This document shows, piece after piece, positions 4,150-25,742 of a DNA stretch of 32,000 nucleotides (the stretch's first letter is position 1; each line of letters begins with the position of its first letter). Below the pieces are notes generated by a model. That model was not told the DNA's origin. It worked only from the letters and a program-made list of their open reading frames with translations, and did no database searches. Origin of the DNA: Candidatus Lokiarchaeum ossiferum (GTDB taxonomy: Archaea > Asgardarchaeota > Lokiarchaeia > Sigyniarchaeales > Promethearchaeaceae); contig CP104013.1 of the NCBI GenBank assembly GCA_025839675.1, positions 2,520,001-2,552,000 of the forward strand. Reading direction: 5' to 3'. Made by a program: the position numbers and the translations under genes.

Positions 4150-4160
4150 TGTTGTATCTC

Positions 4161-5471
4161 CTAAGCGTAAAATTGATTTAAGAGTTCGAAGAATTGCGGA
4201 AATGATTTGTTCACACATGAAGGATTTTCAATCGAGATTCCGGGAACTTTTAACCCCATGATAGCAAAAGCCATCGCCATCCGATGATCATTGTAAGTCG
4301 CCACTTTTCCGCCATGATAGGTTTTTTGTGGAATTATTTTCATGGAATGAGATGTAGTTTCCACTCCGACCCCCAAATGACGTAGTTCCGAAGCAGTCGC
4401 TTCAATCCGATCAGTTTCTTTGTGCTTTAAATGAGCAATATTTGATATATAAGATGCTGTTGAAGCAAAACTGGCCACGATACACATGGACTGTACAAGA
4501 TCAGGGCAATTCCCCATATCAATACTTAATCCAATCAGATTTTTGTTTGGACTTCGGGATAGGTGAATGCCTTCAGAGTTAACAAGTACTTGACAGCCCA
4601 TTCGATGCAATATTTCTAAGAAGATGATATCACCTTGATGAGAGTGAGAATTCAAACCTTTCAAAGTAATATTTCCTCCAAGAATTGCCACAGCGGCGAA
4701 GAAGTAAGAGGCGCTAGAGAAATCCCCTTCGACAACATAATTGGTTGCAGTATATTTTTTTTGATTGGATATTTCAAGAAGTTGAGTCTGGTTATCTTGA
4801 TTTACTTCAATTCCGAATTGATTCATCATCGAAAGAGTGATATCAATGTACGGGCGCGAATGAATTGCCGAAGTCGGTAGAATCTGAACAGATTGGGATG
4901 CGAACGGTGAACTTATCAAGATTGAAGAGAAATATTGCGAACTGATATCCCCCCGTAAATGACATTTACCCCCCGTTAGGCCCGGAAATATTTTCACTGG
5001 AGGATAGCCATTAGATTTCAAATACACTATTTTACACCCTAATTCGAGCAAAGCATCAATCATTGCACCAATCGGCCGCTCTTCCATACGTTTATCGCCT
5101 GTGATAGTGATAGGACGATTTGCTAAAGTACATAATGTGACAAAGAACCGAAGGGAAGTTCCCGAATTTTCAAAACAGAGAGAATCGTGAACAACTTCGA
5201 ATTGCCCTCCCGTTCCATGTATCACTAACCCTTCTGAATTTTCCTCAATGTTAACACCCAAAGACGAAAGACCCTTAAGTGTAGCTCGCGTATCACTACA
5301 AAGACAAGGATTTTCGATATGCGACACACCGTTAGCTAACGCTGCCATAATAAAAGCGCGGTGAGTGACACTTTTTGATCCAGGAATATGAAGTTCAAGA
5401 TCTATGGGTTTGAGAAGAGATTCTATTTCAAGGGTTTTTTTCAAAGGTTTTTTTTCCAATATAGCTTCCAT
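4161..5471 (-). CDS. aroA: 3-phosphoshikimate 1-carboxyvinyltransferase (EPSP synthase)
   Basis: It has the N-terminal LHIPGSKSVTHRAFIMAALANG motif and is 436 aa. It lies within the aro operon. Confidence 0.92.
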   Translation of the reverse strand: MEAILEKKPLKKTLEIESLLKPIDLELHIPGSKSVTHRAFIMAALANGVSHIENPCLCSDTRATLKGLSSLGVNIEENSEGLVIHGTGGQFEVVHDSLCFENSGTSLRFFVTLCTLANRPITITGDKRMEERPIGAMIDALLELGCKIVYLKSNGYPPVKIFPGLTGGKCHLRGDISSQYFSSILISSPFASQSVQILPTSAIHSRPYIDITLSMMNQFGIEVNQDNQTQLLEISNQKKYTATNYVVEGDFSSASYFFAAVAILGGNITLKGLNSHSHQGDIIFLEILHRMGCQVLVNSEGIHLSRSPNKNLIGLSIDMGNCPDLVQSMCIVASFASTASYISNIAHLKHKETDRIEATASELRHLGVGVETTSHSMKIIPQKTYHGGKVATYNDHRMAMAFAIMGLKVPGISIENPSCVNKSFPQFFELLNQFYA

Positions 5472-5511
5472 TTAATTTTTCCTTCCTTTTTGTTTTTCTT
5501 CTTCCAATTTT

Positions 5512-6378
5512 CTAAACGATTCGATTGTAGGATCCCAGATTCCTAATTTGAGCGGTTTTTTGTAGTTCTATTAAACAATCTTGAAGAATGGGATGAGAAA
5601 TATCCGCTTGTATATCAAGATAGAATACATAATCACCCAAACGTCTTTTCGAGGGCCGAGATTCAATTTTAGTCAGATTAATCAATTTCGCTGCAAAAAT
5701 TTGGAGAATTTCATTCAACAATCCGGGTCGATCATCACGGGGATCGATTAATAATGTCGATTTTGATTTAACTCGAGAGTTGAAATGTTGGATCACATAT
5801 TCTTTAGAACTCACCACGATGAATCGAGTAGAATTCAAGGAAGAATTATGTATGTTTTCGGCCAACATAGGGATTCCATAGAGATCAAGGCAGATCTGAG
5901 GAACTATCGCAGCAATTGCAGGCGAATTGGATTCTTGGACTTTTTTGGCAGACTCGGCATTACTCGTTGTATAAATCACATCAACTGCATTCAATTTATT
6001 ATCTATAAAGAGATCACATTGGGCATAGGCTTGAGGATGAGCATAGATTGTAGTAACTTGAGACAAATCACCATGACCTGTCAAATAATGAGCAATTTCT
6101 AGATCTATTTCAGCGATAATTTGCATCCCTTGTCGATTATACTCGATAATACTATCCATACTGGTACCAATGGAACCCGCAGTTGAATTTTCGAGAGGTA
6201 TTACAGCTAAATCAATTTCATTATCTGCTGCCCGAAAGACTCGAGAAATGGATTTTTCAAAACTTAACTCCTTTGAAATTTCCAATGGTTGTAAATATTC
6301 GATAACTTTGAGCGCAGCTTGATGCGAGAACGTCCCTTGAGGCCCCAGGGTTGATATAGTAAAATTTTCAATTGTCAT
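5512..6378 (-). CDS. pheA: prephenate dehydratase with C-terminal ACT domain
   Basis: The N-terminus reads ISTLGPQGTFSHQAA, an NSTRF motif is present, and the C-terminal ACT-like segment is TLLIDPRDDRPGLLNEILQIFAAKLINLTKIESRP. Confidence 0.9.
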   Translation of the reverse strand: MTIENFTISTLGPQGTFSHQAALKVIEYLQPLEISKELSFEKSISRVFRAADNEIDLAVIPLENSTAGSIGTSMDSIIEYNRQGMQIIAEIDLEIAHYLTGHGDLSQVTTIYAHPQAYAQCDLFIDNKLNAVDVIYTTSNAESAKKVQESNSPAIAAIVPQICLDLYGIPMLAENIHNSSLNSTRFIVVSSKEYVIQHFNSRVKSKSTLLIDPRDDRPGLLNEILQIFAAKLINLTKIESRPSKRRLGDYVFYLDIQADISHPILQDCLIELQKTAQIRNLGSYNRIV

Positions 6379-7258
6379 TTAACTTCACCATGTGTTTAAT
6401 GAGTTGATTGCTTTCCTCCATTGCTTTCTCCTTGAAATTTTCAAAAAAACTCGAAGCAAACTGGAATTTTTCCATAAATCCAGCTAGATCTTTTGTTAGG
6501 ATAATTTTTGACATTTCTTCGAGCGTCAATTTATGTTCCAAGAGAGTTTTTTGGGTAAAGGGATTATGCATCGGAATCGATCCATATAATCGGCCATTCT
6601 GGGCAAAAATTCGCCCAATCATGGCCAGCTCCATTCGATAAATAGGGCTTGTATATTCCAAAGTTTCATGGATATCAAAGCCCATTTTCGCCATAGTTAT
6701 CCCAATTGAAATACTGTTGTAGTGAATTAAGACTTGGATTAAACTCATCATCTGATCATGGTTTTCTGGAGTGGTGATTTTTAGTTTGACATCCTTTTCC
6801 TCAAAATATCCTTGAAAAATTGGGAGCCAATCGTTTCGATCCCGAACAGGAGTCATAACCATGGTTTGTTTGGTGATCGTTCCCACAGAGGGATTGAACA
6901 TTGGATGAATTCCGATAATATCTGCCGATGATTTCAGAAGGGCACTTGTGGGTTCCATTTTTACGGAAGTCATTTCAATGACAAGTTTTTCTGGAGTTAA
7001 ATCCGCAGCAATCTCATTGATGACATTTACAGTTTGATCAATAGGTACGGAAATAATCACAATGTCAGATGCAATTACTAAATCACTATTGGTTAAGGAA
7101 GTTGAGACATCTGAAATTAAAACGCGAATCTCATCGGAACTGAAGAGAGAGGAAAAGAAAGATCCGATTTGTCCTAAACCTCCAATAATTCCGATAGTAT
7201 AATTTTTCAAAGTTCTACCTAAGGGTATTATGTTTGGGTGAATTTTTGATTCTTCCAT
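6368..7258 (-). CDS. tyrA: prephenate dehydrogenase
   Basis: It has a Rossmann motif (IGIIGGLGQIGSFF) and a GIHPMF motif. It overlaps pheA by 11 nt, consistent with translational coupling. Confidence 0.85.
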   Translation of the reverse strand: MEESKIHPNIIPLGRTLKNYTIGIIGGLGQIGSFFSSLFSSDEIRVLISDVSTSLTNSDLVIASDIVIISVPIDQTVNVINEIAADLTPEKLVIEMTSVKMEPTSALLKSSADIIGIHPMFNPSVGTITKQTMVMTPVRDRNDWLPIFQGYFEEKDVKLKITTPENHDQMMSLIQVLIHYNSISIGITMAKMGFDIHETLEYTSPIYRMELAMIGRIFAQNGRLYGSIPMHNPFTQKTLLEHKLTLEEMSKIILTKDLAGFMEKFQFASSFFENFKEKAMEESNQLIKHMVKLNDN

Positions 7259-7269
7259 TTCTTTCTACC

Positions 7270-8367
7270 TTATTCCATTTCTTGAGCTTGCAACAAACGC
7301 ATCTCTGAAATGATTAAATTGAAGACTTTTCGGATCAACGTTGGATTAACATCATTTACTGCGGCTAACCGCACGTATTTTTCAGTAATTTCCTTTTCTC
7401 GATCAGGTTGGTATACGGGAAGCGAATTTTTCTTTTTAAACTCAACTAATGCGGGGACAAGATTCAACCGATTGGCAATCAAATCAATAATATCTTCATC
7501 CACATAATTAATTCGCCGTCTCACTTCATCTAAAGTCATCGTGGTTCCAGTTATCACTTTCTTTTCAATTTCGAGAATCGGCTTGATATTTTCGATTAAA
7601 TCGGCAAACATTTCCGGAGGCAGGGATTGAGCCCCATCGCACATTGCAAGGTCAGGATTATTATGAACTTCAACTAAAATACCGTCTGCGTTAGAAGCAA
7701 TTGCAGCTTTGCTCACTGGGATGATTAAATCCCGATTACCTGTGGCATGGCTTGGATCAACAATGATTGGTAAATGAGTCCGCATTTTCAATAATGGAAT
7801 CACTGATAAATCGAGGGTATTCCGGGTTTGGGTGGAAAAGGTTCGAATTCCTCTTTCACACAAGATAATATTTTCATTTCCTTCAACCATTAAGTACTCA
7901 GCAGCATTTAACCATTCATCCACAGTTGCTGATAAGCCGCGTTTTAAGATAATGGGGATATCGGATTTTGATGCTTCTTTGAGTAAATCAAAATTTTGCA
8001 TATTACGGGCTCCAATTTGAATAACATCTACATGATTCGCAGTGACTTTAATATCTCGTGGATCCATCACCTCCGTTATGGTGGGAATATCGAGTTCTTC
8101 ACCTAAATCTTTAATTAGTTTCAAACCTTCTCGCCCTAATCCTTGAAAAGAATAGGGTGAAGAGCGAGGTTTAAACACTGACCCTCGGATGAGATTAGCT
8201 CCTGCTTTTTTGACTAATTTAGCAGTTTGAAAATATTGATCTTGATTTTCGATAGCACAGGGTCCGGCGGCAATTGCAAAAAATTTGCCTCCAATTTTGA
8301 CGTTACCTACGTCCACTACAGTATCTACTGATTTGAATTCACGACTGAATCGCATAACTTTTGACAT
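7270..8367 (-). CDS. aroF: DAHP synthase (type I-beta, KDO8PS-like) fused to a C-terminal AroQ chorismate mutase
   Basis: The DAHPS core shows FAIAAGPCAIEN, GANLIRGSVFKPRSSPYSFQGLG, IQIGARNMQNF and IIVDPSH. The C-terminal ~90 aa (LDEVRRRINYVDEDIIDLIANRLNL...YQPDREKEI...) fits the CM type 2 pattern. GGAGA lies 10 nt upstream of the ATG. Confidence 0.9.
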   Translation of the reverse strand: MSKVMRFSREFKSVDTVVDVGNVKIGGKFFAIAAGPCAIENQDQYFQTAKLVKKAGANLIRGSVFKPRSSPYSFQGLGREGLKLIKDLGEELDIPTITEVMDPRDIKVTANHVDVIQIGARNMQNFDLLKEASKSDIPIILKRGLSATVDEWLNAAEYLMVEGNENIILCERGIRTFSTQTRNTLDLSVIPLLKMRTHLPIIVDPSHATGNRDLIIPVSKAAIASNADGILVEVHNNPDLAMCDGAQSLPPEMFADLIENIKPILEIEKKVITGTTMTLDEVRRRINYVDEDIIDLIANRLNLVPALVEFKKKNSLPVYQPDREKEITEKYVRLAAVNDVNPTLIRKVFNLIISEMRLLQAQEME

Positions 8368-10398: not shown

Positions 10399-11991
10399 AT
10401 GAAATCTACACAACATGTGAAATATATAATGGTTCTATTTGGAATATTGATCTTAAGCCCCTTAATGATTCAAGCATCATCTGGTGAGGAACTTGAAAAT
10501 CCAAAAAATTTTACGACTTTCTTTGGAGGAGCAGGAAATGATTTTGGGAGAGCGATTACTACGGATAATAATGGAAATATTATTGTTGTAGGTCATACTA
10601 CAAGCACTTCGATTTCAGACACAGATCCTTCAATTCAAGACTACAGTGCTGGTGAAGATGTTATTATTGCTAAATTTTCTCCTACCGGAGAATTGATATT
10701 CTATACCTATTATGGAGGATCGAATCAAGACAATGCTGATGGAGTTGCGATCGATGGAGATGGAAACATCATTGTTACGGGTTACACGTCTTCTCTTGAC
10801 TTCCCAACAACTAATGCGCTATTTCCAAACTATACCGGAGGTAAATTTGATTTATTTATATTGAAGTTATCATCGGATGGAGATAAAGTCATTTTTTCCA
10901 CTTATTTTGGAGGAACCGGTGATGATGGCAATTATGGTCATCATGGGAATGGAGTTATTATAGACTCAAATGGCAATATCGTACTAAGTGCTTCCACGAC
11001 ATCCAGCGATCTCTTAGTGAAAAACCCAATTCAACCAAATCGAACCGGTTTGTCAGACATACTTATTTTAAAGTTGTCCAATGATGGACAAGATATTGTA
11101 TTTGCCACCTATTTTGGTGGATCAAGGGATGATTTTGCTGGAAATTGTGTGGTTAATTCCCAAGATCAAATATGTTTTACAGGTGTAACCGATTCAACGG
11201 ATTTTCCCGTTGTCGATGGAATTCAATCGACCTATGGAGGAAAAATCGACGCTTTTCTCACAGTGATCGATTCAGATCAAACGGAGGTGGTATATTCCAG
11301 CTATTTTGGAGGAGCTCAAATGGAATATGGAAGTCGAATTGGCATAGATGGAGATAATAATTTAATATTGACGGGATCTAGCGCTTCTTCAGATCTGGAA
11401 ATTCAAAATGCATACCAAAAAACAAAATCGGAAGGATTAGATGCATATTTAGTCAAAATCTCAATTAAAAACCCAAGTATCACCTTTTCTACATATTTGG
11501 GAGGTGATGTTCATGAGTGGGGATTTAATATGGCAGTAGACCAGAAAAATAACATTTATCTCATCGGTCAAACAATGTCAGATAATTTTCCTACGAAATT
11601 CGCACAACAAAGAACTTTTGGCGGAGATTGGGACGGATTTCTGGCTAAATTTTCTCCATCGGGAAGATTACTATCTTCATCCTATATTGGTGGAACTCAG
11701 AAAGAATTTGGTTTTGATGTAACAATAAATAGGGATGATCAATTAGTATTTGTCTTTTTTGCAGAATCTCCTGAACTTGATGTAAAAAATGCATTTCAGA
11801 CTGAAAATGGTGGAGGTAGTGATATCTATCTCCTTCAAATTAAATTTTCAATACTTTGGTGGATTTGGATTATCATCGGTGTTTTCTTCATAACCATTGC
11901 TTTTATAATCGGTCGCATTATGCAAAAAAAATATAAGTCTAAATCGCAAAAAATTTCTATTCCTTCGGAAGTTGAGATAGAAACCAAGTGA
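10399..11991 (+). CDS. surface-anchored beta-propeller protein with seven SBBP-type repeats (signal peptide, C-terminal TM anchor)
   Basis: The N-terminal segment IMVLFGILILSPLMIQASS is hydrophobic. Seven repeats follow the form (S/T)TYFGG..D.g..i.iD..GNi.vtG.T.S.DFP. The C-terminus has the TM helix LWWIWIIIGVFFITIAFIIGRI followed by a basic tail. Confidence 0.8.
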   Translation: MKSTQHVKYIMVLFGILILSPLMIQASSGEELENPKNFTTFFGGAGNDFGRAITTDNNGNIIVVGHTTSTSISDTDPSIQDYSAGEDVIIAKFSPTGELIFYTYYGGSNQDNADGVAIDGDGNIIVTGYTSSLDFPTTNALFPNYTGGKFDLFILKLSSDGDKVIFSTYFGGTGDDGNYGHHGNGVIIDSNGNIVLSASTTSSDLLVKNPIQPNRTGLSDILILKLSNDGQDIVFATYFGGSRDDFAGNCVVNSQDQICFTGVTDSTDFPVVDGIQSTYGGKIDAFLTVIDSDQTEVVYSSYFGGAQMEYGSRIGIDGDNNLILTGSSASSDLEIQNAYQKTKSEGLDAYLVKISIKNPSITFSTYLGGDVHEWGFNMAVDQKNNIYLIGQTMSDNFPTKFAQQRTFGGDWDGFLAKFSPSGRLLSSSYIGGTQKEFGFDVTINRDDQLVFVFFAESPELDVKNAFQTENGGGSDIYLLQIKFSILWWIWIIIGVFFITIAFIIGRIMQKKYKSKSQKISIPSEVEIETK

Positions 11992-12367: not shown

Positions 12368-12826
12368 TTGATTAATGTAAGTATGATTTTACAAGGATCA
12401 TTTACTTTTTGGACAATCATCTACATCTTGATTGCTACAATATTTTTATGGCTTGCCCTTTGGCTTGCAACCAGAATCATTGTTAGCAAAGATTTTGGCA
12501 ACCGGAAAAAAATAATGTTGCTATTGACCGCTCTACTCATGGTATTATTAGTTCCAATAGTCACAGGTGCAATAATCACTGTAATTGGACTACCTGGAGA
12601 ATTAATGGTGATGATAAGAGGATTAATTGATAATGGAGGACACAATTATGTTAGTGGTATGGCTCCTATTATTGCATTCTTAATTTTCTTAATAATATTA
12701 AAATTCTTAGTTGGAATGGAATGGCGCCACACCATTTGGGTAGGTTTAATTGGAATATTCTTATTGTATCTTTTCTATTCGTTAGTGCCAGAATTAGATT
12801 TCATGGGAGCGATGGGCTATACTTAA
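12368..12826 (+). CDS. membrane protein (about 4 TM helices), unknown function
   Basis: Hydrophobic segments run throughout the protein. The ORF-track start is a TTG 4 nt after GAGGA, and an in-frame ATG at 12383 is the alternative start. Confidence 0.55.
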   Translation: MINVSMILQGSFTFWTIIYILIATIFLWLALWLATRIIVSKDFGNRKKIMLLLTALLMVLLVPIVTGAIITVIGLPGELMVMIRGLIDNGGHNYVSGMAPIIAFLIFLIILKFLVGMEWRHTIWVGLIGIFLLYLFYSLVPELDFMGAMGYT

Positions 12827-12963
12827 TAAGTTTTTTTAATAGACAAATCAAACCAACTTCTACACAAACTTTTTTTTTATTTACAGTTAAATGCCCAATT
12901 TCTTCCACATCTTTTAAAATTAAAACATAAGATATAAAAAACGTAAATACTTTATTCCGATTG

Positions 12964-13482
12964 ATGAATTACTCTTTTGATTTCATGTATGATATCATCA
13001 AAAATCGAAATAAAGACTATGATGGAGTATTTTTTACTTGTGTGAAATCAACAGGAATCTTCTGCCTCCCTTCTTGTAAAGCGAAAACACCTTTTTCCAA
13101 GAATGTTGAATTTATTTCAACAGCATTAGAGGCAAAAGAAAAAGGTTATCGCCCATGCAGGCGCTGTCATCCAATGAATGGACCTCATTTTTATCCTAAA
13201 TGGCTAGAGAAAATTGAAACATACTTAGCGAATAATCTCAATCGAGCAGTTCTGGATTTAGAATTAAGTAATTTGGTTAATTTAGAGATTTCTACAGTCC
13301 GACGTCACTTTAAAAACAAACATACCTTATCCCTTAAAGAATTTCACCGAAATTTGCGATTAGAAAAAGCGAGAAAATTGATGCAAGAGGGAAAAACAAT
13401 GAAAGAAATCCATCCATTAGTTGGATATCAATCTGTAAAGGGATTAAAACTAGCATATACGAAACATCTTGGAATTATGTAG
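12964..13482 (+). CDS. adaA: Ada N-terminal-type methylphosphotriester-DNA methyltransferase fused to an AraC-type HTH (AdaA-like regulator)
   Basis: GIFCLPSCKAKTP..(26 residues between cysteines)..YRPCRRCHP gives C-x3-C-x26-C-x2-C. This is the same spacing as the E. coli Ada zinc site Cys38/42/69/72. The C-terminal half resembles an AraC HTH. The ATG at 12964 is preferred over the TTG at 12961. Confidence 0.85.
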   Translation: MNYSFDFMYDIIKNRNKDYDGVFFTCVKSTGIFCLPSCKAKTPFSKNVEFISTALEAKEKGYRPCRRCHPMNGPHFYPKWLEKIETYLANNLNRAVLDLELSNLVNLEISTVRRHFKNKHTLSLKEFHRNLRLEKARKLMQEGKTMKEIHPLVGYQSVKGLKLAYTKHLGIM

Positions 13483-13483
13483 C

Positions 13484-14023
13484 ATGGACAAAACTGAAGT
13501 TATCATGAAAGAAGTCGATACCCCTCTGGGTGTCATAGTTTTTGCTTCTTCACCAAAGGGTTTATGTTTATTGGATTTTAAATACCGAAAATCATTTCCT
13601 ACAATACTCAAAAGAATTGAAAAACTATACGGGACCAATAAAATACAAGGCACCTCTTCCTTTATTGAACAAGCCGAACAACAACTTCAACGTTATTTAC
13701 TGGGACAACTTCAACAATTTACAGTACCTTTAGATATTCGTGGTAGTATATTTCAATTAAAAGTGTGGCAAGCCCTTCTCCAAATTAAATATGGGAAAAC
13801 AGTATCCTATTTAGATATTGCCAAGAAAATCAACCAACCAGAAGCAGTTCGAGCCGTTGCGAATGCCAATGGACAAAATGGAATAGCAATAATTATCCCT
13901 TGCCACCGTGTAATTGGATCAGATGGATCATTAACAGGATATGGAGGGGGTTTACCAATTAAAAAAAGACTTCTGCAGATAGAATCTGGAAAAAAACAAG
14001 GTAAAATAACCAATTTTCTTTGA
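13484..14023 (+). CDS. ogt: O6-methylguanine-DNA methyltransferase
   Basis: The active site IIPCHRVIGSDGSLTGYGGG and a VSYLDIA helix are present. The ATG at 13484 lies 1 nt after the adaA stop. Confidence 0.9.
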   Translation: MDKTEVIMKEVDTPLGVIVFASSPKGLCLLDFKYRKSFPTILKRIEKLYGTNKIQGTSSFIEQAEQQLQRYLLGQLQQFTVPLDIRGSIFQLKVWQALLQIKYGKTVSYLDIAKKINQPEAVRAVANANGQNGIAIIIPCHRVIGSDGSLTGYGGGLPIKKRLLQIESGKKQGKITNFL

Positions 14024-14154
14024 TATAGCCATTTTTTTCGATTACTGATACTTTTTGTTAGTTTATGATAACATTTATTATTTACCGGACATTGTTTCAT
14101 TGAAGAATCATTATTTTTTTTGTTCATTGTTAAAACAGTAATTTGGCGATTCTA

Positions 14155-14898
14155 ATGAATAACTTGGTTAAAGCAGAAAACCTAGTTCGGAGTTTTGAAT
14201 TTGGTGAAACCCAAATCCATGCCCTCGATGGTGTAGATTTAAGTATTAACGAAGGAGAGTTTGTAGTAATTCTTGGTCCTTCGGGTGCGGGGAAGACTAC
14301 ACTTTTAAATATGATTGGTGGAATTGATCACCCAACTACAGGAAATATCATAGTAGATAGAATTAACATAAAAGACTTAAATACCAAACAATTGAATGAA
14401 TATCGGAAAAATCAAGTAGGATGGGTTTTCCAATTCTTTAATATTGTGGATAGCTTACGCGCTTGGGAAAATGTTGGTTTGGCTCTGGAATTTCAGGGAA
14501 TTAAAAATCGTAAAGAAATCAAAGAAAAGTCCTATAAAATTTTGGCAAAAGTGGGACTAGAAGGAAAAGAGTTACGTTTTCCAAGCCAATTATCAGGCGG
14601 AGAACAGCAACGGGTGGCTATTGCTCGTGCTTTAGTAAAAAATCCAAAATTAATCGTCGCAGACGAACCTACGGGTAATCTCGACTTTGTGACAGGGCAA
14701 AAAATAGCAGAATTAATGCAAACCTTAAATCGTGATGAAGGAAGCACTTTCATTGTAGTGAGTCATGATACTTCTATTACTCGGTATGCAGATAGAATTT
14801 TCCACCTGAAAATGGGTAAAATCGAAAAAATCATCGAAAATCCAAATTCTACAGAAAATGTAACGAATTTACCAGAATTCAAGAAAGTTCAGGAGTGA
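14155..14898 (+). CDS. ABC transporter ATP-binding protein (MacB/LolD-like)
   Basis: It has Walker A GPSGAGKTT, signature LSGGEQQR and Walker B LIVADEPT. The ATG at 14155 is preferred over the TTG at 14143. Confidence 0.92.
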   Translation: MNNLVKAENLVRSFEFGETQIHALDGVDLSINEGEFVVILGPSGAGKTTLLNMIGGIDHPTTGNIIVDRINIKDLNTKQLNEYRKNQVGWVFQFFNIVDSLRAWENVGLALEFQGIKNRKEIKEKSYKILAKVGLEGKELRFPSQLSGGEQQRVAIARALVKNPKLIVADEPTGNLDFVTGQKIAELMQTLNRDEGSTFIVVSHDTSITRYADRIFHLKMGKIEKIIENPNSTENVTNLPEFKKVQE

Positions 14899-14903
14899 TA
14901 CAT

Positions 14904-17372
14904 ATGAAAATCATGGATATAAAGGTTTTTCGGGAGATTAAACAGCAAAAATTTCGCTCGATCCTTATTGTAAGTATTGTGGCAGTTACCCTCACCATGG
15001 TTTTAGGAATGCGTGCAGGATACCCTATGGTAATAGCATCATATGAAGAAAATTTAAGGAATAGTAATGTAGCTGATGGTAGATTTTCACTTACAGCTCC
15101 AGTTCTTGAGGAATCAGTTGAAAAAATTCAAAATGATTCCGAATTCCTAACCAACCACAAAATTGCCGATGTGGAAGGGCGATTAATTACCTATACTGAA
15201 ATTGAATATAATGGGGAAATATTTCCGAGTATTTTGATAGGAGTAGAGTTCCCCAATCAAATAAATCAAGTGAGTTTACAATCAGTCTCTTCTTTAGGAG
15301 ATACAAATCCAAACTTCTTGGCAAATAGTTCAAATTGCATTATTGATGCGGCATTTGCGGGGAATTTACTAGGACAAGATACTCAAATTGGGGAAAATGT
15401 CTCACTTCAATTAGGGGCAATGGAAAAAAATCTAACAATCCAAGCCATTGGGCAGGATCTTGATTTCTGTTATGTGGTAGATCCTATCTCACAAATGTCT
15501 TTAATGGGCCAATTGGCAGTAATATGGATTGATTTATCAGAAATGCAGCAGTTTATGTTTAATGGAATGCCCCTTATTAATCAAGTATTATTTACTGTTG
15601 AAGATCGGCTCAATGAAGATAAAATTAATATCGCCTCGGATGCTTTACTCCAAAATTTTGCCTCACAAGGAATTGATCTCAGTACACTTCAATATGAGAA
15701 GTTTGATGAAACCATTGATCGACAATTTTTCAATGCTGATGCAGGATCAATGGACAAAATGGGAACTTTGTTTGGAATAATTGGGCTAATTATGTGTTGT
15801 GTGGCAATCTATAATACGATTTCCCGCTTAGTCCAATCTCAGCGGAAAAATATTGGCTTATTTATGAGTTTAGGTGCAAATCCAAATAACATTGTTTTAC
15901 ATTATGTTAAAATAACTTTTTATTTGGCGGTAATAGGTTCACTCATAGGTATTCCATTAGGGCATCTATTTGCTATAGGAATGACAAAATTACTTGCCCG
16001 AGTCTGGCCATTTCAAGTACTGTTATTTCCAATAGTTATTGAAGAATATGTGTTTGGAGCGTTAATTACTTTGGGTGTTTGCATCATATTTTCAGGCCTG
16101 AGTGCATTTCCGATAACAAAGATCACACCTCGAGAAGCAATGTCTGCAATCTTCAATCGTATAAAAGCCACCAAAGCCGCTTTCTCGGAACGTCTCTTTT
16201 CATGGCTCCCCGGATTTCGATCTATTCACATGAAAGTCCCGATCAGGGAAATTTTTCTCCGTAAACGTAAATCCGCCGTCACAATTTTAGCAATCACAAC
16301 TTCAATGATCATGTTGATTACCTCAATAGCAATGGTAGGGAACATGTTTGGAGCATTAAATAATAGTTTTGAAGTCTACAATACGGCAAAATACCGTGTT
16401 TTATTTGAAAGTCCAGTTCCCGCAACAAACATTAGCAATTTTATGCAGAATCTTCCTGCGGATACTATAGAGCACTATGAAAGCACAATTACGGTGTATT
16501 CTAATTTAAATGTTGATGGCAACAATGAAGGCGGATTTATTATCGAATGCTATCAAGCGAATTCAACATTTCGGGACATGAACATCATATCAGGTGAGAT
16601 CACCGATAAAAAATCACTAAACTCATCAACAATCTTTTTAGGAAATACTATGGCGAAGGACAATGAAATTGTTCTCGGAGATGAAATAAAAATTGGACTT
16701 ATTGACAATTTTACAGTGAAAGTGGTGGGAATGGTGGGTGAATTTATAGATAATTCTGGCTATTGGACCATTGAATCCTTCAATGCAAATAATAATAGCA
16801 TTCATTTTGGAGTACCATCCAATTATGTGAACGGTTTATTATTTAATCCTGGAGAAGATGTTGACATTGTAGAATTACGGGAAACTATTGGATCTGAATT
16901 CCCAATAGCTCAATGGGTGGATGCTCAACAATCGCAGCAATCTATGATGGCACTAATTCAATCCATGATGAGCCTACTCATCCTCTTTGTGGTGGTTGGG
17001 ATGGTAATAGGTGTACTCTTTAGTTTCAATACCATGTACATGGGCTTTATCAGTCGAGAAAATGATTTTCTTGCATTTAAAGCGATGGGAACAAATCCCC
17101 GTTACTTTTCAAAAATGATATTCTGGGAAAACGCCATATTAAGTGTGTTTAGTCTTATCGTGACCATTCCGGTGGGATATTTTGTTTACTGGCAGTCTAT
17201 GACCTATATGATGGGGGATAACTATTACATCCCACTTTCTATACCTTGGTACACTTGGCCCGTAGTCTTAGGTTTAAGTTTCATCTCCATTGGATTAGCA
17301 ACTCGAAAATTAACAAAACGAATTCGCAAAATGGACTTAGCCGAAGAATTACGATCTCGAATGGTTTCTTAA
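14904..17372 (+). CDS. ABC transporter permease, FtsX/MacB-type with duplicated FtsX modules and large extracytoplasmic domains
   Basis: The protein is about 820 aa with two blocks of TM helices, each preceded by a long soluble loop. AGGAG lies 8 nt upstream of the ATG at 14904 and overlaps the ATPase stop codon. Confidence 0.85.
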   Translation: MKIMDIKVFREIKQQKFRSILIVSIVAVTLTMVLGMRAGYPMVIASYEENLRNSNVADGRFSLTAPVLEESVEKIQNDSEFLTNHKIADVEGRLITYTEIEYNGEIFPSILIGVEFPNQINQVSLQSVSSLGDTNPNFLANSSNCIIDAAFAGNLLGQDTQIGENVSLQLGAMEKNLTIQAIGQDLDFCYVVDPISQMSLMGQLAVIWIDLSEMQQFMFNGMPLINQVLFTVEDRLNEDKINIASDALLQNFASQGIDLSTLQYEKFDETIDRQFFNADAGSMDKMGTLFGIIGLIMCCVAIYNTISRLVQSQRKNIGLFMSLGANPNNIVLHYVKITFYLAVIGSLIGIPLGHLFAIGMTKLLARVWPFQVLLFPIVIEEYVFGALITLGVCIIFSGLSAFPITKITPREAMSAIFNRIKATKAAFSERLFSWLPGFRSIHMKVPIREIFLRKRKSAVTILAITTSMIMLITSIAMVGNMFGALNNSFEVYNTAKYRVLFESPVPATNISNFMQNLPADTIEHYESTITVYSNLNVDGNNEGGFIIECYQANSTFRDMNIISGEITDKKSLNSSTIFLGNTMAKDNEIVLGDEIKIGLIDNFTVKVVGMVGEFIDNSGYWTIESFNANNNSIHFGVPSNYVNGLLFNPGEDVDIVELRETIGSEFPIAQWVDAQQSQQSMMALIQSMMSLLILFVVVGMVIGVLFSFNTMYMGFISRENDFLAFKAMGTNPRYFSKMIFWENAILSVFSLIVTIPVGYFVYWQSMTYMMGDNYYIPLSIPWYTWPVVLGLSFISIGLATRKLTKRIRKMDLAEELRSRMVS

Positions 17373-17667: not shown

Positions 17668-18330
17668 ATGAGTAAAATCCTATGTCATTATCACACAGAT
17701 CAAGAAGCAGAAATCACTTGCGCAAAATGTAATAAGCCAATTTGTCCAGAGTGCAATCATAGCGGAAATTGTACAATTTGTCATTTGACTACATCTTCTT
17801 ATGTCAAGACAACAATCGGTTTTATAGGCTCCACACTTTTTTTCTTACCCTTTTTTGGAGGCGCTGCTATGTTAATCGCCGCCATTATAAATTCTGGTTT
17901 TTTCTGGTTCCTTATTTTGTTTTCCATAGCTTGGATTGGAGGAGTTGCAGTTGGTTATGTTAGTATTCTCGCTTCATTCTTCAACAGTATTTTATCAATT
18001 CGAAAGGAGCGCCAAGCTCGTAAACATTTTGCGAATCAAGTGGGGGTCGATAAAAAGGGAAATCGTATTCATCCCTACTATCGATCTGCTCCTACAAGTG
18101 CAATTCCTAGCGAAATATGTTTTGAAAATTTTACAGAAAATCAGCAAAAATGCACCAATCTTACTATTAATTCAACAAGATCTGCGTCAATCGAGCCCCT
18201 TAAATCAATTTCACTGATTTTATCCAATGGGCAAGTCTTCTGTTACAAATGTGGAAAAATATTACCAAGTGATGCCCAATATTGTCTTCAATGTGGCGTT
18301 CCTTTGAATTATTCCCGGTTACTCAATTAA
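17668..18330 (+). CDS. membrane protein with an N-terminal B-box-like zinc finger and a C-terminal zinc ribbon
   Basis: The N-terminus C6-x2-H-x8-C-x2-C-x4-C-x2-C-x5-C-x2-C-H matches B-box spacing. Two TM helices span residues ~48-105. The C-terminus reads CYKCGKILPSDAQYCLQCG. Confidence 0.65.
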   Translation: MSKILCHYHTDQEAEITCAKCNKPICPECNHSGNCTICHLTTSSYVKTTIGFIGSTLFFLPFFGGAAMLIAAIINSGFFWFLILFSIAWIGGVAVGYVSILASFFNSILSIRKERQARKHFANQVGVDKKGNRIHPYYRSAPTSAIPSEICFENFTENQQKCTNLTINSTRSASIEPLKSISLILSNGQVFCYKCGKILPSDAQYCLQCGVPLNYSRLLN

Positions 18331-18483: not shown

Positions 18484-19503
18484 TTAATTAATTTGAAATC
18501 CACAAAATTCACAAAATTTGTGACCCCTTTTTGTAGGTTTCCCACATTTAGCACAAAATTTACGTATAACCACATTCTGAACTTGAACACGGATTGGTTG
18601 TTGGTATTGATAACCAGGTTGCGATTTTTGTGTGGGTGTTATCACTTTTTGATTATTGTCTTTCATTTTTTTCTCTGATCGCCCTCTAACAATTAAAAGG
18701 GAAATCAATGCGATAGGAATCACAGCCCACCAGAACCAATTGAAGCGCCCATCGGAAAATCCATCGACAAAGACTAAATATAATGAAATTGAAGCGGGAT
18801 ACGCTAAAAAGATTTTAATAGACATCTTTTGTCCAAACGCTTTCTTTTTAGAAGCGAAATAGAAGATCGCATGGAAGAAAATATTAACACCCCATGACAT
18901 AGCAGGCCACAGAAACCATGCATAATCCAATCCATTCAAAATATTGAGAATAAAGAGGAAGGAATTAACTGCGATGTAAATAATAACATGATTAACGAAG
19001 ACTAATCGATTGAGCACAATTTTACGCGCAATTCGATTGGGTTCTTTTACTTCAGGGTCAATATTTTCCATTTCACGAAGAACCATGTGATTAAATCGGC
19101 TATCACTATTACCAAATTGAGGTTTCACAATTTTATTTATTCCATAATGATTAAGCCAAATTAAAGCGAGTGGTATAACTGCAAAAATGAACCATTGAAT
19201 CTTTCTATCTTCAAACCAATCATTCCAAATCAAATAAGCAGATGTAATAATAGTTATGGAAGCATGAATTGCCAAACTTCTATCATACGTATTGTCAAAA
19301 ATATTAATTAATATAATAATCGCTGCATGTAAAACAATTGCGATACCCCAAGACATCAGAGGCCACATGTGCCAGCGAACAGAATATCCAGTTAAAAAAT
19401 TGATAATAAAAAGTAATATATTAACGCTAATATAGACGATAAAATGGATTTTTAAACCCAATAATCGTTTGTCATGTTCTTGATCTTTTTCATTTTCACT
19501 CAA
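18484..19503 (-). CDS. polytopic membrane protein with an internally duplicated 2TM-type module and a C-terminal zinc ribbon
   Basis: There are two copies of the pattern h.vYi.VN..LFi.N...G....W..WP..SWG..i..HA. Each is followed by two more TM helices (WFEDRKIQWFIFAVIPLALI versus FSDGRFNWFWWAVIPIALI). The C-terminus reads FCAKCGKPTKRGHKFCEFCG. Confidence 0.7.
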   Translation of the reverse strand: MSENEKDQEHDKRLLGLKIHFIVYISVNILLFIINFLTGYSVRWHMWPLMSWGIAIVLHAAIIILINIFDNTYDRSLAIHASITIITSAYLIWNDWFEDRKIQWFIFAVIPLALIWLNHYGINKIVKPQFGNSDSRFNHMVLREMENIDPEVKEPNRIARKIVLNRLVFVNHVIIYIAVNSFLFILNILNGLDYAWFLWPAMSWGVNIFFHAIFYFASKKKAFGQKMSIKIFLAYPASISLYLVFVDGFSDGRFNWFWWAVIPIALISLLIVRGRSEKKMKDNNQKVITPTQKSQPGYQYQQPIRVQVQNVVIRKFCAKCGKPTKRGHKFCEFCGFQIN

Positions 19504-19626
19504 TTAATTCACCAAAATTTCCTATGATGCTATATTGGATTTAACAAAATAACATTGATTAATTAAATTAATGCCAATCCTTAGCAAATAAATTAAGTGA
19601 AAATAAGAGCAAAACAAAAAAGAACG

Positions 19627-19635
19627 AAAAAAAAA
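19627..19635 (-). terminator. oligo-T tract (T9 on the minus strand) after the 547-aa helical protein gene
   Basis: An A9 run on the plus strand lies 9-17 nt beyond the stop at 19644-19646. Confidence 0.4.
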
Positions 19636-19643
19636 TATCTTGT

Positions 19644-21287
19644 TTATGATTTCTTTGGTGTCGATTTCTTTGGTGTCGATTTTTTTATGGTTTTTTTTGA
19701 TGATTTCTTGGAAGATTTTTTCGTTGGTTTCGCAGCGGCTGGTTTAGGGGCAGATTCAGTCTTTTTCACAGGTTTTTCTTCTGTTTTCTTAGGGGCAGGT
19801 GTTTTTTTCACAGGAGCAGGAACCTTCTTCTCAGGTTTAACAGTTTTTTCAACCGGTTTTGATCGCAAATCTACAGAATTAAATTCCTTTTTAATTTCAA
19901 TGTCTTTGGCCAAAATTTCGGTATTTGCAATAATATTGAATGCTTGATCATGGAATTTCAAGTTTCGTTCTAATATCGAAGTGAGACTATTTTTACACGC
20001 TTCAATTTTGGAGACGGTGAATAAATGCGTATTCTGGGTCAAAATATTATGTTCATGATTCGTTATTTTATCTAACCGAGCAACATTTTCTTTGGCTTCT
20101 TCCAATTCTCCAGGTTTTAAATTGTTAGCTTCTTTTCCTCGGATTTTTTGCAGGATTCCTTCCCATTTTTTATGATCCTTATAGTTTTCCAGTGTTTTTT
20201 CAAGTTGCTCCAATAATGTTTCTTTTTCTTTGATTGTGTTATCAATTGGTTGAATAAATTCAAACCGCATTTGCTTAACAAATGCTTCTCGATTAGATTC
20301 GATAGTTTCCAGACCCTCAGCAAAGTTTTCAATTGCATTCTGAATTCCAGGAGTTTCTTCTTTCGCGAATTCCTTAAATAAAGTTATCGCTTTACGTGTT
20401 TCAACTTGTAGAAGCAGATGAGCATCCAACAATTGCACATTTTCTTTTCTCACTTTCTCCAATCTTGATCCAACATTTTTGACGGTATTTCGTAGAATTT
20501 TCATTCCCTCAACATAATCTTCGGTGTTTAAACGTGGAATAGGATACAAAATGGCAGAAGTAGACTCTTTCTGGATATTTATTTTATCTACAAAATCTTT
20601 TGTATCAGTTAGTGAATTAATTCCGATCGAGTGTAATTTCTTGTATTCTTGGACGAGTAAAGTCAATGTACGCTTCATATTTTCGAGTTTGTTCTTTGCA
20701 AGTTTTATTTTCAGCATAGACTCATTTTTCTTTCGTGTACTCAACAATTCTTCGGATTCTTTTACACCATCTTCGGCATTTTTTATGGATAAATCGAGTT
20801 TTTCTAATTTTGCTTCTTCTAACCCATCACGAGGTTTTTCTTTTTTTGCCTTGAGTTTTTCTTGACTCTTTTCCAAAGCGGTTTGAGCCGTACCAGTCAA
20901 AGTTTCTGCTTTATAAACTTCTCTTTGTAAATGAGCAAGTTCTTTAATAGGATCTACGAAAGATGTTTCAAGCATTGTCACCATAGCAGTTCGTGAAACT
21001 TCTATACTCTTTAAGGCATCTGACAAATTGATAAAAGCTTGTTTCAATCCAGGAGATTCATGTTCCCCAAAAATTTTGAGAGCAATGATTCCCTCATTAC
21101 TTTCCTTGCATAATTTAAGATGGCTTTTTAGCATTTGATTATTGGCATCAACAATATCCTCTAATTTGAGATGGACATTAGAAAAACGGTCTTTGATGAC
21201 TAAGAATTGTTCTTGTATTTTCTGTAGTATGTTCATTGATATGTTCCCCATTACATGTTTGATCGATGTTGAATAAAAAGGTTCCAT
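19644..21287 (-). CDS. all-helical protein with two tandem homologous ~210-aa domains (BAR-like by pattern) and a Lys/Pro-rich polybasic C-terminal tail
   Basis: The internal duplication is visible by eye: residues 77-116 (ESPGLKQAFINLSDALKSIEVSRTAMVTMLETSFVDPIKE) align with 311-350 (ETPGIQNAIENFAEGLETIESNREAFVKQMRFEFIQPIDN). The composition is helix-rich and charged. The tail (residues 476-547) has 26 Lys in 72 residues. That it is a real gene is near certain. The BAR assignment is inference. Confidence 0.6.
   Translation of the reverse strand: MEPFYSTSIKHVMGNISMNILQKIQEQFLVIKDRFSNVHLKLEDIVDANNQMLKSHLKLCKESNEGIIALKIFGEHESPGLKQAFINLSDALKSIEVSRTAMVTMLETSFVDPIKELAHLQREVYKAETLTGTAQTALEKSQEKLKAKKEKPRDGLEEAKLEKLDLSIKNAEDGVKESEELLSTRKKNESMLKIKLAKNKLENMKRTLTLLVQEYKKLHSIGINSLTDTKDFVDKINIQKESTSAILYPIPRLNTEDYVEGMKILRNTVKNVGSRLEKVRKENVQLLDAHLLLQVETRKAITLFKEFAKEETPGIQNAIENFAEGLETIESNREAFVKQMRFEFIQPIDNTIKEKETLLEQLEKTLENYKDHKKWEGILQKIRGKEANNLKPGELEEAKENVARLDKITNHEHNILTQNTHLFTVSKIEACKNSLTSILERNLKFHDQAFNIIANTEILAKDIEIKKEFNSVDLRSKPVEKTVKPEKKVPAPVKKTPAPKKTEEKPVKKTESAPKPAAAKPTKKSSKKSSKKTIKKSTPKKSTPKKS
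19648..19682 (-). repeat. 15-bp tandem repeat (GATTTCTTTGGTGTC, 2 full copies and a partial third) encoding KKSTP-KKSTP-KK at the extreme C-terminus
   Basis: Copies at 19648-19662 and 19663-19677 are identical, and the third decays after 5 nt. Confidence 0.9.
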
Positions 21288-21328
21288 TTAAACCAAAAAT
21301 ATAATAAAGCTTAGAGAGAAAAACGGGG

Positions 21329-21349: not shown

Positions 21350-22183
21350 TTAATTCAGAAGATAGGATCGATGGGTTTTCATCCACTCTACAGCAAAATC
21401 GACTAGATCAACTTGCGAGAGCAAAATTGCTTCCGCATTTACAATTTTGTTTCGAATATACCCAATAGATTCTTCAAAAGCTTTCCCTATTTCAGGGAAG
21501 TCTTCATCTTCGTAAGAAAAATCATCCCATTCAACCCACTTTCTCTGTCCATTCTCAAGTACAGCTGCTCCTTGAGATTCCATAGGATTATTAGGAATAT
21601 TGGCTTTAGATTCTGCAAGATGTAAAGATGAATTATTACTATGACCAACACCCAAAAGGAGAATTTTCCCTCCCATTTCATAAATCCGCCCAAGGGGAGA
21701 ATTTTCTCCAAACGATGGAAAATAAGGCTGATTAGCAGTAATTATGGGGGCATTCTTTCCCCAAGCAGTGAATGAATTTTGAGGATGATTACTCCGTATC
21801 ACTCCCGGGTATGTTCTAAATAGATCTGCAATCTTACCCATCATTCGATTAGGAGTAACGTCTGGTCTAAAAGGAGGAAGATTATCACGAATTGTAGGCC
21901 ACCACATCTCTGGGACAGATGGATGTTGCCAAACACTTGGTTCAGAATTTCCACCAGAATGGGCAGGCATAATCAAAGTTCCTTCTTTTGTGACAACTTC
22001 CATCAAGGCTTCCACAACATCGATGGCACCACCCACAACCCAACCAATTTTGCTAAGGGAACTGTGCACAACCAATATATCACCTTTTTGGATTCCAATT
22101 TTCCTAAATTCTGTGATAAGAATATCTTTGGTGATTGGACGAGTAGTTTGGTCTATTATATTTTTTTCTCTTTGTTCGGCCAT
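21350..22183 (-). CDS. aminoglycoside 3-N-acetyltransferase family protein (AAC(3)/YokD-like)
   Basis: Motifs GDILVVHSSLSKIGWVVGGAIDVVEALMEVV..GTLIMP, SNHPQNSFTAWG and LLLGVGHSNNSSLHLAE are typical of the Antibiotic_NAT fold. Confidence 0.85.
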   Translation of the reverse strand: MAEQREKNIIDQTTRPITKDILITEFRKIGIQKGDILVVHSSLSKIGWVVGGAIDVVEALMEVVTKEGTLIMPAHSGGNSEPSVWQHPSVPEMWWPTIRDNLPPFRPDVTPNRMMGKIADLFRTYPGVIRSNHPQNSFTAWGKNAPIITANQPYFPSFGENSPLGRIYEMGGKILLLGVGHSNNSSLHLAESKANIPNNPMESQGAAVLENGQRKWVEWDDFSYEDEDFPEIGKAFEESIGYIRNKIVNAEAILLSQVDLVDFAVEWMKTHRSYLLN

Positions 22184-24785: not shown

Positions 24786-25220
24786 ATGAGTCTTCTTACG
24801 ATCATAACAATATTTTTTCTTGTAATGGAATTCACAAATGTGGGAGCACTATACTTCTTCCCCGGAACGAAATATGCAAACGCAGTTGGTGTGTTCAATG
24901 CTTGGGAGAAATCTAAACAAGATCCGGAAGTTCATCGTTTAGTAAAATACTTAACTTCTTGGGTTGCTGGAACAAAACTAATCTTTATCGGATTGTTAAT
25001 TGTAATCCTCCTCACTGCAGATGCCACAACCCAATGGTGGGCTGCGGTTGTAATGGTTCTTTCAATTGCGAGCTTTTTCTGGAAACTGTTCCCTTTAATT
25101 CGAAAAATGGATAACGATGATCAGATTTCCCCGAAAAAATATTCACTCGCTCTGGGAATCATGATTGCGGTCTTTATTTCAATGTTTATTATCGCCGTAA
25201 TCTTTGCATGGCCGTTTTAA
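24786..25220 (+). CDS. small membrane protein (about 4 TM helices), unknown function
   Basis: It has an ATG start and four hydrophobic stretches. I recognise no family. Confidence 0.55.
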   Translation: MSLLTIITIFFLVMEFTNVGALYFFPGTKYANAVGVFNAWEKSKQDPEVHRLVKYLTSWVAGTKLIFIGLLIVILLTADATTQWWAAVVMVLSIASFFWKLFPLIRKMDNDDQISPKKYSLALGIMIAVFISMFIIAVIFAWPF

Positions 25221-25280: not shown

Positions 25281-25742
25281 TCATTTCAGATTTTTTTCAA
25301 TGACTTTCTTTATAACATCTTTTGACCCATCAGTGGCGATTTTCTTGCCTTTTTGAATGAATGGAGAGACAACTGTTTCAACTTTTTCAACCACTTCTTC
25401 AAATTTCGCTTCGATTTTTTTTCCGCCTTTTTCATCAATCTTGTTTTCCAATTTTTCTACTGCAGTTTCAATGCGATCCCCGACGACACGATCCAAACCA
25501 GATTGGAGTTTATTAACAGCATTTTCAATATCTCCTTCGTGATCTTCTAACTTTCTTTGAACGGAATCCATTACATCATGCACTTTCTGACCCGCTTCTG
25601 GTGCTATTTCATCGAGAATTTTAATTCCAGTACCAATCCCTTTTTTGACTAAAGTCACGGATTTGGTGGCATTTTTTAGAGTTTTTGTCCCTGATTTAAC
25701 TGTATCAAATGTATCTTTTATTTTTTTTTTTGTATCGCCCAT
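25281..25742 (-). CDS. small, highly charged, probably all-helical soluble protein, unknown function
   Basis: The 153-aa protein is K/E/D/V/T-rich and has no hydrophobic segment or Cys. Its amphipathic-looking periodicity argues against a random AT-rich ORF. Confidence 0.6.
   Translation of the reverse strand: MGDTKKKIKDTFDTVKSGTKTLKNATKSVTLVKKGIGTGIKILDEIAPEAGQKVHDVMDSVQRKLEDHEGDIENAVNKLQSGLDRVVGDRIETAVEKLENKIDEKGGKKIEAKFEEVVEKVETVVSPFIQKGKKIATDGSKDVIKKVIEKNLK

Follow-up and report, generated by a model that had tools for sequence, protein, structure and literature searches.

The tandem gene and its internal duplication

BAR domains are core components of eukaryotic membrane remodelling, and their use by Asgard archaea bears on the origin of endomembranes and protrusions. 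Here we analyse a gene of Candidatus Lokiarchaeum ossiferum, one of the few cultured Asgard archaea and a host with striking membrane protrusions, whose product is predicted to carry two BAR units in one chain. The gene lies in a stretch of 32,000 nucleotides of contig CP104013.1 (positions 2,520,001 to 2,552,000 of the forward strand; hereafter the window, counted from its first letter), where an open reading frame (ORF) of 547 aa plus a stop codon occupies 19644..21287 on the reverse strand, as listed in the original prediction. From Met18 on, this ORF is 100% identical to NEF87_002122, a 530-aa "hypothetical protein" of Ca. Lokiarchaeum ossiferum at NCBI. The true start of NEF87_002122 is probably Met18 at 21236, because the NCBI model and all homologs begin there, with the motif MNI(L/I)QK (ATG at 21236-21234); the first residue of each of the four closest homologs is the equivalent of Met18. 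ORF residues 1-17 are probably untranslated, and the residue numbers of the units, the kink and the interface sites given below refer to the 530-aa protein.

AlphaFold2 (AF2) and sequence profiles delineate two BAR units, both on the reverse strand and both modelled with a predicted local confidence (pLDDT) around 90. Unit 1 (20607..21167) comprises three helices at residues 24-58, 62-132 and 141-210, and unit 2 (19905..20516) three helices at residues 241-291, 296-366 and 377-444. Between them lies a linker (20517..20606; residues 211-240) that AF2 models as two short helices and about 14 non-helical residues; its length and sequence vary among homologs, and it is disordered in the model of a paralog group described below. 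Unit 1 is preceded by an amphipathic N-terminal helix, MNILQKIQEQFLVIKDRFS (21180..21230; residues 3-19), which AF2 models as helical with pLDDT < 50, and unit 2 is followed by a polybasic low-complexity tail (19647..19871; residues 456-530).

That the protein is an internal duplication, as had been proposed from the sequence, is borne out by direct comparison of its halves, which are 27% identical over 226 columns (BLASTP E 4e-16), and by alignment of a profile of the N-domains of 10 tandem homologs with one of their C-domains (hhalign probability 100%, E 5.4e-43, 211 columns). The ungapped match between residues 77-116 and 311-350 on which the proposal was built is reproduced with its 14 of 40 identities, the strings quoted for it having been off by one residue (78-117 and 312-351); it is the best-conserved segment of a duplication that extends over the entire domain. 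A repeat of this strength lies far outside what chance would give. It is best explained by derivation of the two halves from one old duplication, an origin that a neighbor-joining (NJ) tree of the domains also suggests. In this tree, which is rough and carries no support values, the N-domains cluster together, with the free-standing domain of the relative P0012 among them, the C-domains make up a clean clade of their own, and the internal topology of the two subtrees is the same; such grouping with matching topology suggests that the tandem pair has been stably inherited since that single duplication. We also considered an origin by fusion of adjacent N-like and C-like genes and rejected it, since the free-standing relatives show no division into an N-like and a C-like type, nearly all of them scoring higher with the N-domain profile than with the C-domain profile, and since the single-domain relative P0014 has no partner gene beside it.

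The BAR fold and its nearest relatives

A phmmer search of PDB sequences with the query recovered only the BAR domains of CIBAR1/FAM92A, matched by each half in turn (E 0.002 and 0.028). With a repeat-unit profile, built by stacking both halves of each of four orthologs, mouse and human CIBAR1 were recovered end to end (E 3.7e-15 and 1.9e-13), the match to the BAR domain covering positions 20-223 of 233. Next in rank came endophilin-B1 and Dictyostelium IBARa, and then, all with E > 0.1, one non-BAR chain (a flagellin, E 0.15), Vps5 and SNX1. A family profile of 36 sequences reached CIBAR1 with E 1.9e-26, and 23 of its 23 PDB matches with E < 0.01 were BAR-superfamily proteins, which beyond CIBAR1 comprised amphiphysin, endophilin, Vps5, SNX1/5, IBARa, MIM and arfaptin-2; the FAM92 match was better than that to Vps5 or SNX1 by about 20 orders of magnitude. 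Matches to I-BAR sequences were weak (IBARa, 4nqi, E 0.0066 to 3e-4; MIM 6.5e-4; compare CIBAR1 at 1e-15 to 1e-26), and F-BAR proteins gave no match in the repeat-unit or family profile searches of PDB sequences. Spectrin-like, TelA, PspA/ESCRT-III and generic coiled-coil proteins were likewise absent from the profile search results.

The relatives of the tandem protein point the same way. When 38 of them were compared with Pfam, 24 matched FAM92 at E <= 0.01 (best E 7.4e-32), 19 matched BAR_3 and 13 BAR, with a few matching BAR_2, Arfaptin, IMD or Vps5. Gathering scores were exceeded for BAR_3 by P0012 (39.4; cut-off 31.7) and P0053 (48.2), for BAR by P0011 (29.0 vs 28.5), and for FAM92 (PF06730; threshold 23.6 bits) by P0017 (32.9), P0055 (32.0) and P0011 (29.3); P0017 also passes IMD marginally (27.1; cut-off 26.2), and the Arfaptin matches stay below threshold. 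Neither the query nor either of its separate halves matches the FAM92 model at that threshold. Automated pipelines label relatives of this family "FAM92 protein" or "BAR domain-containing".

Structure prediction with AF2 was performed on ORF residues 18-473 with an alignment of 13 rows, the last 75 residues lying outside the model, and gave a mean pLDDT of 87.9 and a predicted TM score (pTM) of 0.77. The protein had been described as essentially all helix; by DSSP this is correct for the modelled residues 18-473, and fails for the last 75, a Lys/Pro/Ser/Thr-rich tail unlikely to be helical. The model contains two three-helix units of about 200 aa that superpose on solved BAR domains. Foldseek against the PDB, with TM scores normalised to the target, superposed one unit on FAM92A (9uhd) with TM 0.83, rmsd 3.1 Å and probability 1.0, followed by endophilin (TM 0.69), SNX1 (0.67), arfaptin-2 (0.65), APPL1 (0.60), the I-BAR protein IBARa (4nqi; 0.50) and the F-BAR protein GAS7 (0.29, rmsd > 9 Å). 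Foldseek E-values are usually poor for all-helical queries. Here too they were poor, and some unrelated long-helix proteins stood near the top by E-value, yet with TM 0.1-0.2 and rmsd > 30 Å. A model of P0053, a member of the paralog group, shows the same two-domain fold (pTM 0.73) and superposes on FAM92A with TM 0.84 and 2.7 Å. Since pTM values of 0.73-0.77 were obtained for a chain whose two domains are joined by a floppy linker, AF2 appears to place the two domains confidently against each other.

Profiles and predicted structures together show each half as a three-helix BAR fold of about 200 aa, by best match of the classical type rather than I-BAR or F-BAR. A coiled coil or another helical family had been named as the outcome that would speak against BAR identity; profile and structure searches instead gave BAR, with CIBAR1/FAM92A far ahead, and the BAR assignment of both halves is supported.

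An exhaustive phmmer search of 1.84 billion representative sequences yielded 44 relatives, mostly single-domain proteins of 200-240 aa, and those with names all come from Lokiarchaeota or Promethearchaeota. At least three groups can be told apart among the tandem proteins, namely P0001-4, P0005 with P0052, and P0006 with P0053-55; a further tandem protein is encoded in the genome of Ca. Harpocratesius repetitus (locus L007). A scan of a genome collection with the tandem alignment found three loci only, a thin sampling of the taxonomic range. The tandem form appears to be old and, within this sampling, restricted to Lokiarchaeia-type archaea. L. ossiferum itself encodes a second tandem protein, NEF87_003839 (P0005, 451 aa; "BAR domain-containing protein" in UniRef). 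This paralog and its group (P0006, P0053-55 and the H. repetitus locus L007) have the same BAR-linker-BAR architecture and probably go back to the same ancient duplication; they are 33-36% identical to NEF87_002122, lack the polybasic tail, lie nearer to the Pfam BAR models and occupy a different neighbourhood, beside a CitMHS transporter gene. In three contigs of the group of P0053 and P0055 the CitMHS gene follows closely downstream of the tandem BAR gene in convergent orientation, a conserved synteny (L008 6408-8018, L009 6454-8151 and L010 6399-8054). The single-domain Lokiarchaeial BAR proteins (about 215-235 aa; for example MBN2150360.1, which is P0014, and MBD3353551.1, which is P0024) belong to the same family, with a mean identity of 25-26% to either half and phmmer E-values down to 1e-20, and several pass the BAR_3, FAM92 or BAR thresholds. 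They have one domain and are presumably homodimers, whereas the tandem proteins form their own N and C groups in the tree. Another Asgard-type BAR fusion is seen in the relative P0043 (467 aa), which combines N-terminal HEAT/Armadillo repeats with a single C-terminal BAR domain.

Among characterized proteins CIBAR1/FAM92A and CIBAR2/FAM92B (PF06730; PDB 9uhd, 8ceg) are the best match in sequence and structure by a wide margin. FAM92A and the tandem protein have in common a three-helix unit of about 200 aa, a kink proline, a helix-2 arginine, a helix-3 histidine, a hydrophobic zipper on helices 1 and 3, and a distal Lys/Arg cluster. FAM92A pairs as a symmetric homodimer of single-BAR chains, whereas the tandem protein has two diverged copies per chain; their identity is about 17%, and the query falls below the Pfam FAM92 threshold. 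To our knowledge archaea have no cilia. The settings in which FAM92A acts with Chibby, the ciliary base and mitochondria (PMC12269497), have no counterpart in this archaeon.

BAR-like genes as such have been known from Asgard genomes since 2015. The original prediction had called prokaryotic BAR-like proteins extremely rare, which overstates the case: a putative BAR domain protein of Lokiarchaeum was noted in 2015, as cited in PMC4917890, and Eme et al. 2023 (PMC10307638) report Vps5-BAR homologs from across the Asgard archaea, those of Thorarchaeia being fused to Vps28. In these two papers the earlier Asgard BAR proteins are counted among eukaryotic signature proteins and are of Vps5/SNX type or unspecified, with no mention of a tandem architecture. 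BdpA of Shewanella oneidensis, named in the original prediction as the studied prokaryotic example, has BAR-domain-like membrane-sculpting activity (PMC8687657); this bacterial protein, which acts on outer-membrane extensions, never surfaced in our searches. In the literature searched we found nothing on NEF87_002122, no description of a tandem single-chain BAR architecture or of a specific CIBAR/FAM92 affinity of Asgard BAR proteins, and no functional, structural or other experimental work on an Asgard BAR protein. What appears to be new here is the tandem single-chain form and the affinity to CIBAR/FAM92, the latter, rather than one to SNX/Vps5-type BAR domains, offering a testable phylogenetic lead.

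Proposed pairing of the units and attachment to the membrane

To compare functional sites we mapped those reported in the crystal-structure and mutagenesis study of FAM92A (PMC12269497) onto an alignment of both halves, single-domain relatives and two CIBAR1 sequences. The FAM92A dimer is formed by antiparallel packing of helix 1 on helix 1' and helix 3 on helix 3', with about 2700 Å² buried (PMC12269497). The helix-2 kink proline of FAM92A (P167) corresponds to P96/P330, its R153 to R82/R316, and its helix-3 dimer-interface histidine (H264) to H202/H429, all of them invariant across the tandem homologs. Two motifs that had been pointed out in both copies find their place here: the "helix-2 signature" covers the first part of BAR helix 2, as far as the kink proline, and the closing "..FH.QA..I" ending contains the interface histidine of helix 3. 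Both halves are hydrophobic at the zipper sites of FAM92A, which are L99, Y106, L113, I124 and Y127 on helix 1, L139, F142 and F146 where helix 2 begins, and L253, F256, I257, L268, F271 and I278 on helix 3, and at least 15 hydrophobic interface positions are kept in both. As to lipid contacts, basic residues are retained at regions 2 and 4 of FAM92A: its distal cluster R201/R203/R205 corresponds to A130/K132/K134 in unit 1 and K364/R366/K368 in unit 2, and its K194 to K123 and K357. Counted over the 16 mapped lipid-binding positions, unit 1 is basic at 7 and unit 2, the more acidic half, at 5; the alignment shows the distal basic clusters to be conserved across the family.

Two regions outside the BAR units could add to membrane contact. 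The N-terminal helix has a hydrophobic moment of 0.51 (protein mean 0.30), a mean hydrophobicity of 0.44 and a charge of +1, and its amphipathic pattern is kept in most tandem homologs; it is a candidate membrane-inserting H0 helix of the N-BAR type, on evidence that is not specific to such helices. The tail contains 26 Lys and 12 Pro, has a net charge of +21, and is rich in Lys, Pro, Ser and Thr, with KKSTP repeats at its end (KKSTPKKSTPKKS). This terminus is encoded by a 15-nt tandem repeat at 19648-19686 (2.6 copies, 95% match), by slippage of which the tail seems to grow; it forms an S/TPKK-like motif reminiscent of histone H1 tails. Among the homologs compared the tail is present only in L. 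ossiferum and in P0002, which is 88% identical, is reduced and partly acidic in P0003, and is absent in P0004, P0005 and P0053-55. It looks like a lineage-specific add-on, plausibly an electrostatic membrane anchor.

From these observations we favor, with somewhat better than even confidence, the reading that NEF87_002122 is a cytoplasmic two-BAR chain of a Lokiarchaeial family near CIBAR1/FAM92A, whose halves pair as an asymmetric pseudo-dimer that attaches to the membrane and senses or stabilizes its curvature. Unit 1 would pair with unit 2 of the same chain, helix 1 with helix 1' and helix 3 with helix 3', giving a covalent asymmetric BAR pseudo-dimer whose dimerization would be independent of concentration and whose halves would be separately mutable. 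Such an intramolecular pairing is plausible and is favored because both halves keep the FAM92A interface, AF2 places them confidently, and the linker can span the gap: by our estimate the end of helix 3 of unit 1 and the start of helix 1 of unit 2 would lie on the same side of the dyad, about 35 Å apart, a distance that the non-helical stretch of about 14 residues should be able to bridge. The pseudo-dimer would attach to the inner, cytoplasmic face of the cell membrane through the Lys/Arg clusters conserved on the sides of each unit and at its distal ends, helped by the N-terminal amphipathic helix and, in L. ossiferum, by the +21 polybasic tail. There it might sense or stabilize curved membrane, for example at the bases, necks and tubular stretches of the protrusions. 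L. ossiferum has long membrane protrusions with high-curvature regions (PMC9834061), which for that reason are a natural place to look.

Several observations weigh against this reading. Mutation of the central basic patch of FAM92A abolishes about 90% of its liposome binding (PMC12269497), and this essential patch is missing from the tandem protein: R108, K109, R112, R114 and K116 of FAM92A correspond to K37, S38, K41, C43 and E45 in unit 1 and to D271, A272, L275, Q277 and E279 in unit 2, so that by alignment it is not conserved. The BAR units are near neutral, with net charges of +3 and -2. Every helix in a bundle is amphipathic, and the hydrophobic moment of the N-terminal helix is for this reason weak evidence; the tail, being lineage-specific by the comparison above, cannot be the core mechanism. 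Pfam and NCBIfam searches with the whole query alone gave nothing useful, and the C half alone reached only 20.9 bits with BAR_3, below the cut-off of 31.7. Comparison of the neighbourhoods of orthologs, paralogs and one single-domain relative disclosed no conserved partner gene, and our literature search found no expression, localization or lipid-binding data on the tandem protein. Finally, a monomer prediction cannot tell intramolecular pairing from domain-swapped or chain-forming pairing.

This last point leads to the main rival, to which we give a lesser but real chance, namely that the units pair between molecules, unit 1 of one chain with unit 2 of the next, either as domain-swapped dimers with two BAR modules or as open head-to-tail chains that would build a filament-like membrane scaffold. 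In its favor, the hydrophobic dimer interface is complete in each unit, the linker is both short and disordered, AF2 models of monomers often display interfaces that are truly intermolecular, and BAR lattices on tubules are known, the coat proteins ACAP1 and SNX1 being among the fold matches. The linker length nonetheless suits the estimated intramolecular span, and two independent members of the family gave a pTM of 0.73-0.77; the co-divergence of the N and C subtrees as a unit is explained equally well by either model. We regard as doubtful, but as the next rival to consider, a role of the BAR fold as a protein-binding scaffold for small GTPases, in the manner of arfaptin, or for cytoskeletal proteins, with membrane contact indirect or through the tail only. 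The loss of the central basic patch and the near-neutral domains would fit such a role, as would the sub-threshold Arfaptin matches of relatives, the fusion of HEAT repeats to a BAR domain in another relative, and the many small GTPases of Asgard genomes, one of which is encoded near the ortholog P0004; the BAR domain of FAM92A itself binds CBY1 (PMC12269497). On the other side, neither a GTPase nor any other partner is conserved beside the gene in the neighbourhoods compared, the Arfaptin scores lie under threshold, and the family as a whole keeps the distal basic clusters and the amphipathic N-terminus.

In H1 and H2B, S/TPKK motifs contact DNA in its minor groove, and the tail, with its net +21 and its S/TPKK-like repeats ending in KKSTPKKSTPKKS, could be read as that of a nucleic-acid- or chromatin-associated protein resembling histone H1, with the helical part serving only for oligomerization. 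We hold this to be very improbable: the tail is wanting in P0004, P0005 and P0053-55 and partly acidic in P0003, it expands by simple 15-nt slippage, and the conserved portion of the protein is the BAR pair. That the protein is no BAR protein at all, and instead a generic coiled coil or a member of a spectrin-like, TelA-like or PspA/ESCRT-III-like family, might be argued from the failure of the query alone to match Pfam and from the poor Foldseek E-values, with unrelated long-helix proteins ranking high. This we consider scarcely credible, as those unrelated proteins superpose with TM 0.1-0.2 and rmsd > 30 Å while the BAR matches reach probability 1.0 and TM up to 0.84, all PDB profile matches below E 0.01 are BAR proteins, and relatives exceed the Pfam BAR thresholds.

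The favored pseudo-dimer can be extended to a bolder picture, which we think rather unlikely. In it the protein would be a single-chain, intrinsically asymmetric BAR scaffold, one half of which binds the membrane and the other half of which is diverged and more acidic; it would shape or patrol the actin-supported protrusions of Lokiarchaeia and belong to a Lokiarchaeial family ancestral to CIBAR/FAM92, perhaps to classical BAR domains generally. If this were true, a curvature-generating module would have existed in the archaeal lineage before eukaryogenesis.

Putative flanking signals and the remainder of the window

The letters around the gene contain several putative signals on its strand, whose functions are suggested by their form and position. 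A TATA-box-like A/T stretch, GCTTTATTATATTTTT, lies at 21294..21310, about 60-70 nt upstream of the Met18 ATG, and a Shine-Dalgarno-like GGGG(A) element at 21246-21249, 10-13 nt before it. A scan for sigma-70 promoters gave no more hits than expected from shuffled sequence, the bacterial-type model being not meaningful for an archaeon. Just past the stop codon a T-rich run (19611..19635) is likely an archaeal oligo-T terminator, and since the flanking neighbourhood is not kept in relatives either, the BAR gene looks monocistronic. Two antisense ORFs on the forward strand, 19597-19947 and 20524-20865, encode products rich in F, G, V and D (FFGVDFFGVDFF...); we dismissed them as mirror images of the Lys/Glu-rich coding strand, and it is almost certain that neither is a gene.

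The gene immediately upstream of the BAR gene, likewise on the reverse strand, belongs to the aminoglycoside 3-N-acetyltransferase family (21350-22183; PF02522, 288 bits). Just downstream, also on the reverse strand, 18484-19503 encodes a 339-aa membrane protein with two 2TM domains (PF13239) and a C-terminal zinc ribbon; in the neighbourhoods of relatives this gene does not accompany the BAR gene. The next gene (17668-18330, forward strand) likewise ends in a zinc ribbon.

Elsewhere in the window, no match to Pfam at E <= 0.001 was obtained for five ORFs that encode 144-336 aa (12368-12826, 24786-25220, 25281-25742, 29760-30770 and 30922-31581). Other genes encode a 530-aa protein with an SBBP beta-propeller repeat (10399-11991, forward strand), a 697-aa TPR protein (26134-28227, reverse strand) and a GH18 (chitinase-like) glycosyl hydrolase (28493-29722, forward strand). 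On the forward strand, 12961-14023 holds a DNA alkylation-repair pair, in which an Ada zinc-binding domain with an AraC-type helix-turn-helix (HTH) is followed by an overlapping O6-methylguanine methyltransferase, and 14143-17372 a MacB-like ABC exporter, its ATPase preceding an 825-aa permease of the FtsX/MacB type. A compact aromatic amino-acid operon occupies 1265-8367 on the reverse strand, with genes for chorismate synthase, type I dehydroquinase, dehydroquinate synthase, EPSP synthase, prephenate dehydratase with an ACT domain, prephenate dehydrogenase, and a DAHP synthase fused to chorismate mutase.

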